Positions 37,716-40,006 of a stretch of 64,000 nucleotides of DNA are shown in pieces (position 1 is the stretch's first letter; each line of letters opens with the position of its first letter). The position numbers and the translations under genes are program-made. The stretch lies in the sequence record OR995200.1. One strand, written 5' to 3'. This DNA comes from Escherichia phage JY01. Below the pieces are notes generated by a model that saw nothing but the letters and a program-made list of their open reading frames with translations, ran no database searches and was not told where the DNA came from.

Positions 37716-37747
37716 TACCAAAAAGCCCCAACCTTTCGGCTAGGGCT
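37716..37747 (-). terminator. Rho-independent terminator downstream of the internal-protein-like gene
   Basis: Minus strand stem AGCCCUAGCC/GGUUGGGGCU with GAAA loop followed by UUUU. Confidence 0.6.
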
Positions 37748-37754
37748 AAGAATG

Positions 37755-38228
37755 TTATTTGATTTGTTTAGCAGACCAAATGCGGTCTTTAATAATTTTT
37801 TGGATATCTTCAACATACTCAAGAGAGTGAGCATGTGGGTTATCTTTGAAACTATAAGCACGAGCTAGTTTTTGGCCTTCAGTTTTGATTACTAAAAGCT
37901 CTTTAAGGATAGCTTCATATTTGGAGATAATTCCTTTAACAATATTTTTCTCTTGTGCGACTTTAGGATCTGCTTTAGGAGCAGGTTTACCCGAAGCCTT
38001 TGCAAAAGCAGCGCCAGTAGCAACTAAACTTTTCCAGGCCATACTAACTGCATTTCCCGTAAATCCTTCCGCTTTCATGTCGCGTGCGAACTGGAATCGT
38101 GATTCATCAGAAGCATCTTTGTAAGAATATTTACCCGCTGCAATGGCTGCTTTTGCGACAGCTTGAATTTCGGTGCTAGATGCTTCATTTAACACCGCTT
38201 CATTTAAAAATTGAGTATATGATTTCAT
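37755..38228 (-). CDS. Internal-protein-like head protein with capsid-targeting leader
   Basis: 157-aa ORF starting MKSYTQFLNEA; late promoter upstream; terminator hairpins on both sides. Confidence 0.6.
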   Translation of the reverse strand: MKSYTQFLNEAVLNEASSTEIQAVAKAAIAAGKYSYKDASDESRFQFARDMKAEGFTGNAVSMAWKSLVATGAAFAKASGKPAPKADPKVAQEKNIVKGIISKYEAILKELLVIKTEGQKLARAYSFKDNPHAHSLEYVEDIQKIIKDRIWSAKQIK

Positions 38229-38276: not shown

Positions 38277-38305
38277 CCAAAAAGCCCCAACCTTTCGGTC
38301 GGGGC
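38274..38305 (-). terminator. Rho-independent terminator at the end of the tRNA/stable-RNA unit
   Basis: Minus strand stem AGCCCCGACC/GGUUGGGGCU with GAAA loop followed by UUUUU. Confidence 0.65.
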
Positions 38306-38353
38306 TAAGCCTTGCGGCAACCTTGTCGGGGTTCCACCTGCTAAGGCAAGTGT

Positions 38354-38514
38354 TTGTACGAAACGCCGGGATTCGAACCCGGTTATTAAGCAGTTGACGC
38401 TACTCAATATTTTTAAAAGGCCATATCTCGACCATATCCGAACGTTCCGTCAAAAACGCTACTCGGCTTACGGCAAAGATATTTCCTCGAATCGATAATT
38501 CGGTGCGCCGTTTC
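38354..38514 (-). ncRNA. Candidate tRNA-like stable RNA (compare T4 species 1/2 RNAs)
   Basis: Perfect T-arm-like element CCGGGTTCGAATCCCGG, complementary ends AGAAACG/CGTTTCG, no ORF, terminator immediately downstream. Confidence 0.3.
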
Positions 38515-38615
38515 TGCTGTGATGTAAGAGGGCATCAATAAACGCAAAGATTATTAACGCAATTCCTTACTCAGGGAACATCAGTCCGACGACTTACCGG
38601 TAGCGACCCGGTTTC

Positions 38616-38966
38616 TTAATATTCTTTTAAAGCATCAATCTGTTTACGGCGTTCACGCCATAAATCAATTGCTTCATACGCGGATTCAACATTTCGAATT
38701 GGACGGCATTTATATAAAGATTTGTGATTTTGATATTGCGTAGATAACGGAATTTTATCTAAAAGGTCTTTACGTTCAAAGTATTCGTAACCATCTAAGC
38801 CAAATGAACGATTTTTGAGAAATTGCCAATGACCAAATTCGTTTTGAATATAAATATAATCCGCATGTTGATAAAGTAAATTAATTTCACGAAATGAGAT
38901 ATGTTTTTCATATTCATTGAAGTAAAATGTTAAATCATGAACTACTAAATAAACATTACCTTTCAT
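38616..38966 (-). CDS. Hypothetical protein within the tRNA region
   Basis: 116-aa ORF between tRNA-Arg and the stable-RNA candidate. Confidence 0.45.
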   Translation of the reverse strand: MKGNVYLVVHDLTFYFNEYEKHISFREINLLYQHADYIYIQNEFGHWQFLKNRSFGLDGYEYFERKDLLDKIPLSTQYQNHKSLYKCRPIRNVESAYEAIDLWRERRKQIDALKEY

Positions 38967-38984: not shown

Positions 38985-39060
38985 TGGTCGAGGCAGTAGG
39001 GATCGAACCTACGACCTAGGACTTAGAAGGTCCTTGCTCTTCCTTCTGAGCTATGCCCCG
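38985..39060 (-). tRNA. tRNA-Arg (anticodon UCU)
   Basis: 76-nt cloverleaf read by hand; anticodon loop CUUCUAA; T-loop GGTTCGATCC; CCA encoded. Confidence 0.8.
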
Positions 39061-39064
39061 TAAT

Positions 39065-39140
39065 TGGGGTGACCGATGGGAGTCGAACCCATGACTACGA
39101 GAATCACAATCTCGAGTTCTACCAACTGAACTACGGCCAC
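39065..39140 (-). tRNA. tRNA-His (anticodon GUG), no encoded G-1
   Basis: 76-nt cloverleaf GTGGCCG…; anticodon loop TTGTGAT; discriminator C; CCA encoded; 5' flanking base is U. Confidence 0.65.
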
Positions 39141-39254
39141 ATTAATACCTACTCCAACAATCAAGATGTCTTCACACGAAATTAAGAGAAGAGTGATCAG
39201 TTCAACCCCTATAATCGCGTCAAGTAGATATTAATGTGACAGTTGTCACAAATT

Positions 39255-39329
39255 TGGCGGACGTGATAGGATTCGAACCTATAACCAATCGCTTAACAGG
39301 CGATCGCTCTGCCATTGAGCTACACATCC
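39255..39329 (-). tRNA. tRNA-Asn (anticodon GUU)
   Basis: 75-nt cloverleaf GGATGTGTAGCTCAATGGCAGAGC…; anticodon loop CTGTTAA; CCA encoded. Confidence 0.75.
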
Positions 39330-39333
39330 AAAT

Positions 39334-39420
39334 TGGTGGGGAGTGATGGAGTCGAACCACCCGAGTCGCAATGACAATGAATTTACAGTCCACACCGCTA
39401 CCTCTACGGGATAACTCCCC
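39334..39420 (-). tRNA. tRNA-Tyr (anticodon GUA), long variable arm
   Basis: 87-nt class II cloverleaf; anticodon loop CTGTAAA; 3-bp D-stem; CCA encoded. Confidence 0.7.
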
Positions 39421-39433
39421 TTAATTCATAATT

Positions 39434-39508
39434 TGGTGGCCCTGGGTGGAATTGAACCACCATCTGGCGATTATGAGTCGCTTGCTTGAACCTTCCAGCT
39501 ACAGGGCC
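39434..39508 (-). tRNA. tRNA with CAU anticodon (Ile2 by T4 synteny, or Met)
   Basis: 75-nt cloverleaf; anticodon loop CTCATAA; lies 1 nt downstream of tRNA-Thr, as in the T4 Thr-Ile dimer. Confidence 0.7.
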
Positions 39509-39509
39509 T

Positions 39510-39585
39510 TGGTGCTGATTGACGGAATCGAACCGCCGACCTTCTCATTACAAGTGAGTTGCTCTACCTACTGAGCTAAATCAGC
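39510..39585 (-). tRNA. tRNA-Thr (anticodon UGU)
   Basis: 76-nt cloverleaf GCTGATTTAGCTCAGTAGGTAGAGC…; anticodon loop CTTGTAA; CCA encoded. Confidence 0.8.
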
Positions 39586-39590
39586 AAAAC

Positions 39591-39680
39591 TGGCGGAGGT
39601 GATAGGATTCGAACCTATGAATCGCCGGAGCGACTGCCGGTTTTCAAGACCGGTGCATTCAACCACTCTGCCACACCTCC
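39591..39680 (-). tRNA. tRNA-Ser (anticodon UGA), long variable arm
   Basis: 90-nt class II tRNA; anticodon stem CCGGT/ACCGG with loop CTTGAAA; CCA encoded. Confidence 0.75.
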
Positions 39681-39682
39681 AG

Positions 39683-39756
39683 TCTCCATACAAGGATTTG
39701 AACCTTGGACCTCCTGATCCCAAATCAGGCGCTCTACCAAACTGAGCTACACGGAG
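39683..39756 (-). tRNA. tRNA-Pro (anticodon UGG), CCA not encoded
   Basis: 74-nt cloverleaf; anticodon loop TTTGGGA; 2-nt spacer to tRNA-Ser (Pro-Ser dimer arrangement). Confidence 0.75.
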
Positions 39757-39766
39757 TAAATTAAAT

Positions 39767-39840
<74 letters not shown>

Positions 39841-39845
39841 AAATT

Positions 39846-39932
39846 TGGTGCGAGAAGTGGGACTCGAACCCACAAGGAAATCATTCCGCAGCATTTTAAG
39901 TGCTGTGCCTTTACCAATTTGACCATTCTCGC
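39846..39932 (-). tRNA. tRNA-Leu (anticodon UAA), long variable arm
   Basis: 87-nt class II tRNA; anticodon stem CAGCA/TGCTG with loop CTTAAAA; CCA encoded. Confidence 0.8.
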
Positions 39933-39933
39933 G

Positions 39934-40006
39934 CTGGGAATAAAGGACTCGAACCTTTGCATCCTGGAATCAAAATCCAGTGCCTTACCAACTTGGCTAA
40001 TTCCCA
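39934..40006 (-). tRNA. tRNA-Gln (anticodon UUG), CCA not encoded
   Basis: Starts TGGGAATTAGCCAAGTTGGTAAGGC with U1-A72; anticodon loop TTTTGAT; 1-nt spacer to tRNA-Leu (Gln-Leu dimer). Confidence 0.8.

Follow-up and report, generated by a model that had tools for sequence, protein, structure and literature searches.

The T4 rnaC (species 1 RNA) ortholog of Escherichia phage JY01: a stable RNA of the tRNA operon with a covarying four-way junction and a candidate loop-loop contact

Results

The tRNA/stable-RNA operon of phage JY01

The DNA analyzed here is a 64-kb stretch of Escherichia phage JY01 (hereafter referred to as the window), a T4-like phage belonging to Tequatrovirus. It includes an operon arranged in the order tRNA array, rnaD, rnaC, and operon terminator, with all of these elements located on the minus strand. 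A preliminary description of positions 38354-38514 had proposed that a tRNA-like stable RNA is encoded 3' of the tRNA array. Since all 11 of the tRNAs are read from the minus strand, the candidate RNA should be read from the minus strand as well, and in this orientation it corresponds to T4 rnaC. The features of the locus are listed below in the direction of transcription. The mature ends of JY01 rnaC were carried over from the T4 annotation.

38985..40006, minus strand: 11 upstream tRNA genes (ARAGORN and Rfam tRNA)
38502..38619, minus strand: rnaD (species 2 RNA) ortholog, containing AGAAACG at 38508-38514 (alignment to NC_000866 71053-71171)
38496..38501, minus strand: 6-nt spacer GAAUUA between rnaD and rnaC (T4 alignment; similar in size to the 5-6 nt rnaC-tRNA spacers found elsewhere)
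38357..38495, minus strand: rnaC (species 1 RNA) ortholog, 139 nt (alignment to the T4 misc_RNA rnaC and covariance model R1)
38307..38356, minus strand: conserved 3' trailer with the hairpin CACUUGC-CUUA-GCAGGUG (conserved in T4, VR25, and IME08)
38278..38306, minus strand: intrinsic terminator of the tRNA/stable-RNA operon (stem at 38283-38306, T-run at 38278-38282)

The T4 genome (NC_000866) annotates two misc_RNAs directly 3' of tRNA-Arg, rnaD (species 2, 119 nt) and rnaC (species 1, 139 nt), and both could be aligned to the JY01 sequence nearly base for base, which bears out the resemblance to the T4 species 1/2 RNAs that had been suggested initially. In a full-length pairwise alignment, 137 of the 139 nt are shared with T4 rnaC (NC_000866 70908-71046), the remaining two being substitutions. 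A covariance model built from rnaC homologs (model R1) scored the JY01 RNA at 158.7 bits (E=2e-41) as its sole match in the 64-kb window, compared to 159.6 bits for T4 rnaC itself. The RNA has a minimum free energy of -50.2 kcal/mol (z=-4.55), and 761-801 phage records match the stretch, nearly all of them from Tequatrovirus and its relatives. In Rfam 15, no family matched rnaC at gathering thresholds and only noise was returned at E-values up to 10, with the nearest signal being tRNA-Sec at 16.6 bits (E=1.6) versus a gathering threshold of 47. The minus-strand segment 38357-38495 is, with near certainty, the ortholog of T4 rnaC. It is an already known element, and the JY01 copy is a rediscovery.

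In the 38354-38514 segment, the first 19 nt consist of the 6-nt spacer and the final 13 nt of rnaD, and the whole of rnaC makes up the remainder. As originally delimited, the element did capture rnaC, but its 161 nt exceed the true 139 nt and merge parts of two RNAs. It had also been portrayed as ORF-free, which is accurate for ORFs of ≥60 aa, whereas it is overlapped on the minus strand by two shorter ORFs (50 and 44 aa), each with a TTG start. The terminator thought to follow immediately is genuine, having a 10-bp stem with 7 G-C pairs, a GAAA loop, and a T-run, but it begins 50 nt past the RNA 3' end rather than adjacent to it. The reported T-arm-like element CCGGG-TTCGAAT-CCCGG is present at 38366-38382 on the minus strand, where it is the sole match in the window at ≤2 mismatches and was equaled in 0/100 shuffles. 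Apart from this element, the T-arm core GGTTCGAWTCC occurs in the window solely within three genuine tRNAs from the array.

The JY01 array encodes tRNAs for Gln, Leu, Gly, Pro, Ser, Thr, Met/Ile-CAT, Tyr, Asn, His, and Arg (11 versus 8 in T4), and the segB homing endonuclease gene is absent from its interior. Between tRNA-Arg and rnaD lies a 116-aa ORF (phrog_3355; 38616-38966, minus strand), which has no Pfam hit and a TAA stop codon that overlaps the position matching the T4 rnaD 5' end. As tRNA-Arg abuts rnaD in T4, but not in JY01, the rnaD 5' end must arise differently in JY01. Within rnaD (including the copies at 1498-1620 of L004 and L005), the 5' ~65 nt and the 3' ~30 nt are retained, while the center exists in two unrelated versions, one in T4/JY01 and the other in VR25/IME08. 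The rnaD sequence ends with CACC-G in JY01 versus CACC-A (a tRNA-like ACCA) in T4, and its fold is weakly better than those of shuffled sequences (z=-1.6, one fold). On the opposite side of rnaC, the 50-nt trailer also includes the motif GGAACCCCGACAAGG and has a counterpart in L004 (~1621-1690); it may represent a site of processing or an additional structured element. Past the terminator is a 157-aa ORF (phrog_2280; 37755-38228, minus strand) after which the rnaC terminator recurs in nearly identical form (37724-37747). This ORF and terminator copy look like a cassette inserted at the terminator relative to T4, and the same arrangement of ORF and second terminator recurs in G29, slur, and AR1 phages.

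rnaC is a discrete module of T4-like phage genomes

Homologs of rnaC were gathered through distant BLAST searches and pattern scans of IMG/VR, metagenomes, and bacterial/archaeal genomes, with the hits filtered using covariance model R1. This retrieved 42 copies of rnaC, 32 of which are distinct. They range from 138 to 141 nt in length and occur in the genera Tequatrovirus, Mosigvirus (RB69), Gaprivervirus, Karamvirus, Winklervirus, Kanagawavirus, and Marfavirus, as well as in Citrobacter phage Ursula, which belongs to the unclassified Straboviridae. No cellular rnaC homolog was found in 185,579 bacterial and archaeal genomes. Model R1 also produced a number of weak matches, such as L065 1076-1188 (minus strand) and L126 4529-4638 (plus strand) at 17.7 and 18.7 bits, respectively, one located ~600 nt 5' of a true rnaC, and further ones including L106, all at ≤19 bits. 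These are probably tRNAs that were caught through their T-arms.

The genomic placement of rnaC differs among lineages. In Karamvirus, it is located between tRNA-Trp and tRNA-Gly, while it precedes tRNA-Trp in Winklervirus and follows tRNA-Met in the CIP9-type phages. All three groups have rnaC-tRNA spacers of 5-6 nt and no rnaD. Dhakavirus IME08 presents the reciprocal arrangement, as rnaD is present and rnaC is cleanly absent, with rnaD joined straight onto the trailer that follows rnaC in T4 and JY01. From the occurrence of rnaC in tRNA arrays lacking rnaD, together with the IME08 rnaD lacking rnaC, we can conclude that rnaC is a discrete tRNA-gene-like module that is independent of rnaD.

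The sequence at the rnaC 3' end also differs among lineages. Marfavirus-type copies (L020, L026, L035, L036, L107, and L119) end in ...CGUUCCG-UCCAA, which places U+CCA after the terminal stem, and T4-type copies end in ...CGUUUCG-UACAA. A CAA following the annotated rnaC 3' end is kept in nearly all homologs (CAG in Ursula) and may be a signal for 3'-end processing or one related to CCA. It should be noted that the label rnaC appears in a few records only (GiZh, RB33, Kha5h, and T4), and that misannotated copies include a tRNA-Lys(ttt) in L022 (1173-1266) and tRNA-Phe(gaa)/tRNA-Met(cat) in L023, L094, and L070.

Comparative evidence for a four-way junction

The secondary structure of rnaC was derived by running RNAalifold on 16 sequences aligned with MAFFT, and a second set consisted of 26 model-aligned sequences together with the loop-loop helix considered further below. 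The 16-sequence alignment yielded a four-way junction, with compensatory changes at 25 of its 42 pairs. Among the 26 sequences, standard pairs were found in 97.3% of cells, compared to 36-46% when the partners were slid by 1-3 columns, and changes on both sides were found for 27 of 47 pairs, compared to ≤7 in the slid controls. None of 500 shuffles reached the observed pairing/covariation measures. The JY01 sequence fits every consensus helix, as follows:

38488..38494, minus strand: P1 terminal (acceptor-like) stem, 5' strand CGAUUCG, RNA positions 2-8 (pairs with RNA 131-137)
38418..38487, minus strand: P2 long hairpin, 70 nt, RNA 9-78 (compensatory changes in 16/22 pairs)
38448..38453, minus strand: P2 apical loop UUGACG, RNA 43-48, kissing candidate A (conservation and complementarity to the P3 loop)
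38410..38417, minus strand: P2-P3 linker, A/U-rich and single-stranded, with a conserved AAAA (unpaired in the consensus)
38384..38409, minus strand: P3 hairpin, RNA 87-112 (compensatory changes in 8/9 pairs)
38394..38399, minus strand: P3 loop CGUCAA, RNA 97-102, kissing candidate B (conservation and complementarity to the P2 loop)
38366..38382, minus strand: P4 T-arm CCGGG-UUCGAAU-CCCGG, RNA 114-130 (motif match and covariation)
38359..38365, minus strand: P1 terminal stem, 3' strand CGUUUCG, RNA 131-137 (partner is the RNA's own 5' end; abuts the T-stem)

P1 adjoins P4 without a spacer, similar to the acceptor and T stems of a tRNA. Its five Watson-Crick pairs flank two invariant mismatches (U5.U134 and U6.U133), and pair 4/135 is A-U in 9/26 and G-C in 17/26 sequences. 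P2 is comprised of four stem segments with internal loops between them. Its length is held at 70-71 nt in the 32 distinct homologs, even though identity within its interior drops to as low as 27%, and there are at least four versions of P2 with no sequence relationship to one another, each of which folds as a single hairpin. The middle stem pair of P4 is G-C in 11, U-A in 14, and A-U in 1 of the 26 sequences. The T-loop is canonical in most lineages, while UGCAUCC or UGCAUGC is found in Winklervirus and the CIP9-type phages. Because at least seven T-loop variants occur among the homologs, this loop is less constrained than the loops of P2 and P3. Of the two substitutions that distinguish JY01 rnaC from that of T4, one is unpaired in P2 and the other turns a U-A into a U.G in P3. 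Overall, rnaC is very probably a four-way junction composed of a 7-position P1 stacked on the T-arm, a 70-nt P2, and a 26-nt P3. This structure is conserved with compensatory changes over 32 distinct homologs from at least seven genera, and Rfam is without a family for it. For the identity of the RNA and its secondary structure taken together, we estimate a probability of roughly 0.85.

The P2 and P3 loops are complementary

The tip of P2 (UUGACG) is the exact complement of the P3 loop (CGUCAA), with each being 6 nt. Both loops are invariant across lineages, including those having unrelated P2 stems, with the exception of the Marfavirus clade, in which UUGGCG is found together with CGCCAA, the two substitutions falling exactly on positions that pair with one another. 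Kanagawavirus PEi26 and KLB31 as well as Citrobacter phage Ursula, which were recovered in further BLAST searches, all keep the UUGACG/CGUCAA combination. In alignments fitted to the covariance model, the six loop-loop pairs form in 192/192 cells (32 distinct sequences), compared to 16-50% when slid. The homologs were mostly obtained from scans that placed no constraint upon the two loops, and a scan that permitted non-complementary loop combinations found none. The A-U to G-C change in the loop-loop helix is present in six distinct sequences of a single clade and represents one compensatory event. Scans of IMG/VR, metagenomes, and the 185,579 bacterial/archaeal genomes returned the same lineages and no second independent event, and the pair-level shuffle test of this helix was not significant, with 372/500 shuffles reaching the observed value. 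Covariation is seen in each of the stems that flank the loops (P2d and P3), which leaves a tertiary (i.e., kissing) contact, and not an alternative nested helix, as the only way for the loops to pair. On the basis of this complementarity, we consider it reasonably probable that the P2 and P3 loops make a kissing contact, whereas an intermolecular dimer would satisfy the same UUGACG/CGUCAA complementarity. We found no description of the contact in the searchable literature, the coverage of which does not extend to the original papers from the 1970s-80s. A reading of TTGACG as part of a sigma-70 promoter was rejected, as there is no promoter match at this site and the compensatory change favors RNA pairing.

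If formed, the kissing contact would close the rnaC body into a compact ring. P2a-c (17 bp and three internal loops) would run outward, while P2d, the kiss, and P3 (~20 bp) would run back over a roughly equal length, with the turn positioned at a conserved asymmetric 4x1 internal loop. This geometry is a base-pair count, and the fixed length of P2 is consistent with such a closed ring.

Alternative readings of the locus

The preliminary description had suggested that the acceptor-like stem could be formed by a different pair of segments, AGAAACG and CGTTTCG. Both segments are indeed present (38508-38514 and 38359-38365) and lie 149 nt apart, but only 6 bp can pair between them (GAAACG/CGTTTC), as the outer A and G do not. 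Furthermore, this pairing is not conserved; AGAAACG belongs to rnaD, and the real P1 is formed by C2-G8 with C131-G137. A ~160-nt RNA closed by GAAACG of the rnaD 3' end and CGUUUC of the rnaC 3' end might nonetheless represent the structure of an rnaD-rnaC precursor, given that the 6-bp complement is perfect in both JY01 and T4, that the stem forms in the minimum free energy fold of the 161-nt stretch (-57.5 kcal/mol), and that the U135 state permitting it is confined to rnaD-containing lineages. However, a tRNA 3' end or other sequence replaces GAAACG on the 5' side of rnaC in Karamvirus, Winklervirus, Kanagawavirus, and Marfavirus, the T4 mature ends place GAAACG in a separate RNA (rnaD), and it is the competing P1 stem that has covariation support. 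GAAACG is even conserved in the rnaD of Dhakavirus IME08, a phage without rnaC. Since the motif resides in rnaD, is not universal, and is kept in IME08 despite the absence of rnaC, it does not form the terminal stem of the rnaC family, and we view the ~160-nt RNA as quite unlikely. The GAAACG stem may have a transient role in a dimeric rnaD-rnaC precursor of T4-type phages. 

Two other readings are most improbable. One would derive a degenerate ~94-nt long-arm tRNA from the 3' two-thirds of the RNA, using the internal ACGGAACG as its 5' acceptor strand, and the G29 record annotates exactly this ~94-nt stretch as tRNA-Lys(ttt). ARAGORN likewise calls tRNA-Phe(gaa) or tRNA-Met(cat) at RNA positions 46-141 of some homologs, and the weak Rfam tRNA-Sec alignment (16.6 bits, E=1.6) points in the same direction. 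Yet, this tRNA-Sec score is far under the gathering threshold of 47, and neither ARAGORN nor Rfam called a tRNA at rnaC in the JY01 window. The pseudo-tRNA anticodon sits in the variable linker and differs among orthologs (Lys, Phe, or Met), which indicates that these calls are artifacts. The ACGGAACG acceptor helix exhibits no compensatory change, is 88.5% paired, scores below its own shuffles, and has a G.U replaced by A x C in 14/26 sequences, while the 5' 45 nt, which would be left out of such a tRNA, belong to the best-conserved part of the RNA and show covariation with its 3' end. We therefore regard the 94-nt pseudo-tRNA as refuted by covariation. As for a canonical tRNA, the T-arm is present (5-bp stem and a 7-nt UUCGAAU-type loop), whereas a cloverleaf with a D-arm and a consistent anticodon arm is absent; the acceptor stem has 7 positions that include two U.U, and the tail reads G-UA-CAA in T4-type copies and G-UC-CAA in Marfa-type ones. 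ARAGORN found no tmRNA, and the only Rfam signal of this kind was a 17-nt T-arm match to permuted tmRNA (E=8.1). The other reading, a structured 3' UTR or terminator-proximal stabilizer of the upstream 116-aa ORF, or else a small protein-coding gene, is suggested by the location of JY01 rnaC 3' of an ORF ending at 38616, by the overlapping ORFs of 50 and 44 aa, and by the 'hypothetical protein' CDSs that many records place over rnaC, with CDS and RBS features in F48, Marfa, and PhiKpNIH-6. The T4 genome, however, has no ORF at this position, as tRNA-Arg abuts rnaD, and the Karamvirus and Winklervirus copies reside in mid-array with tRNAs on both sides, which is contrary to a 3' UTR of an upstream ORF. 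In addition, northern blots of T4 show rnaC as a discrete band (PMC9697503). Its stems change by compensation, its indels are 1-2 nt, and P2 can be swapped for unrelated sequence of the same shape, all of which is unlike a coding region. The P2-P3 linker differs in length by 1-4 nt among homologs in steps that are not multiples of three, which similarly argues that rnaC is not coding.

Discussion

Processing and possible function of rnaC

Species 1 RNA has been known as a tRNA-like stable RNA of T4 since the 1970s, and ~50 years have passed without an assigned function. It was reportedly sequenced by Paddock and Abelson in the 1970s, and work from the 1970s-80s is said to have found that it is cut in vitro by RNase III and that its precursor served as an RNase P substrate. 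According to more recent literature, both RNAC and RNAD accumulate late in T4 infection, and T4 RNAC was seen on a northern blot using a probe that corresponds to the first 58 nt of the JY01 rnaC copy (PMC9697503). The function of rnaC/rnaD was still described as unknown in 2025 (PMC12685909), and likewise in other studies (PMC3014915, PMC9697503). The 2025 study also describes a convergent SNP that arose in rnaD when a T4-like phage was evolved on a semi-permissive host (PMC12685909).

In our proposed model for rnaC, P1 and the T-arm would form a 12-layer tRNA-like minihelix serving as a handle for tRNA-type excision and stability, with RNase P generating the 5' end and exonucleases trimming the 3' end to release the RNA. 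Excision of this type would explain why rnaC is found in tRNA arrays with tRNA-sized spacers of 5-6 nt, and by analogy with tRNAs, we are inclined to favor such tRNA-like processing. The functional surface would then consist of the body, closed by the kissing contact, together with the invariant U.U motif. The conserved nucleotides are nearly all located in internal structure and there is no anticodon arm, both of which make a protein-binding or decoy mode of action likelier than antisense regulation. Even so, a role for rnaC as a protein-binding RNA or decoy, i.e., a tRNA mimic for a tRNA-recognizing host or phage factor, is a tentative suggestion that may well prove incorrect, and the non-canonical T-loop in two lineages implies that strict tRNA mimicry is not universal. 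More speculative is the specific notion that rnaC is a tRNA-mimic decoy whose minihelix engages the host tRNA machinery for maturation and stability and whose rigid, ring-shaped body, with its kissing contact and U.U motif, sequesters or redirects a tRNA-recognizing factor, and the odds seem to be well against it. The targets of such a decoy may be a host anticodon/acceptor-stem nuclease, another tRNA-targeting defense, or RNase P/E. If true, the decoy reading would supply a function for an RNA that has been unexplained for ~50 years, and a non-decoding RNA would join the phage counter-defenses, which now include phage tRNAs.

It is also rather unlikely that rnaC acts in trans as a small RNA controlling host or phage mRNAs through base pairing. 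Reviews do loosely term RNAC and RNAD small regulatory RNAs, and late accumulation of RNAC (PMC9697503) would be in line with such a role. However, its conserved single-stranded sequence appears to be nearly confined to the linker AAAA and the T-loop, its two best-conserved loops are complementary to each other, and no mRNA target is known. In practical terms, rnaC is currently un- or misannotated in most of the ~800 phage records, which a model such as R1 would remedy. The comparative structure settles the true terminal stem and shows that rnaC and rnaD are independent modules, while the kissing candidate, the fixed 70-nt P2, and the invariant U.U are mutable features that make the function of species 1 RNA easier to test.

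Comparison with known systems

As an ortholog, T4 rnaC has the same length, the same strand relative to the tRNA array, rnaD on its 5' side, and the trailer and terminator on its 3' side. The wider context is unlike that of T4, as JY01 has a 116-aa ORF between tRNA-Arg and rnaD, while a 157-aa ORF and another copy of the terminator follow further 3' of rnaC. With respect to canonical tRNAs (RF00005), rnaC shares a T-arm with the GGUUCGAAUCC core, a 7-position terminal stem abutting the T-stem, the resulting 12-layer minihelix, and its placement in a tRNA array with tRNA-like spacers. Unlike canonical tRNAs, it has neither a D-arm nor an anticodon arm, but rather 70-nt and 26-nt hairpins in their places. 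Its acceptor stem contains two U.U, the T4 type encodes no CCA, and tRNA models miss it.

In tmRNA, with its tRNA-like domain, and in the bacterial Y-RNA-like YrlA, both of them stable and non-coding, an acceptor/T-arm mimic is attached to a body unlike that of a tRNA, and these RNAs act via protein partners instead of decoding. The rnaC RNA resembles them in having an acceptor/T-arm mimic joined to a non-tRNA body, although Rfam returned no tmRNA or YrlA match to it, ARAGORN no tmRNA, and there is no tag reading frame. In addition, the 5' and 3' ends of YrlA are reported to form the Ro-binding stem, whereas those of rnaC form an acceptor-like stem. For the loop-loop contact, the relevant precedents are HIV TAR-TAR* and ColE1 RNA I/RNA II, where two hairpins kiss through loops of 6-7 nt that are paired in full. 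The candidate loops of rnaC would similarly pair at every loop nucleotide. Unlike TAR-TAR* and RNA I/RNA II, the contact suggested for rnaC by complementarity and one covariation event would join two loops of the same molecule, right beside a tRNA-like minihelix.
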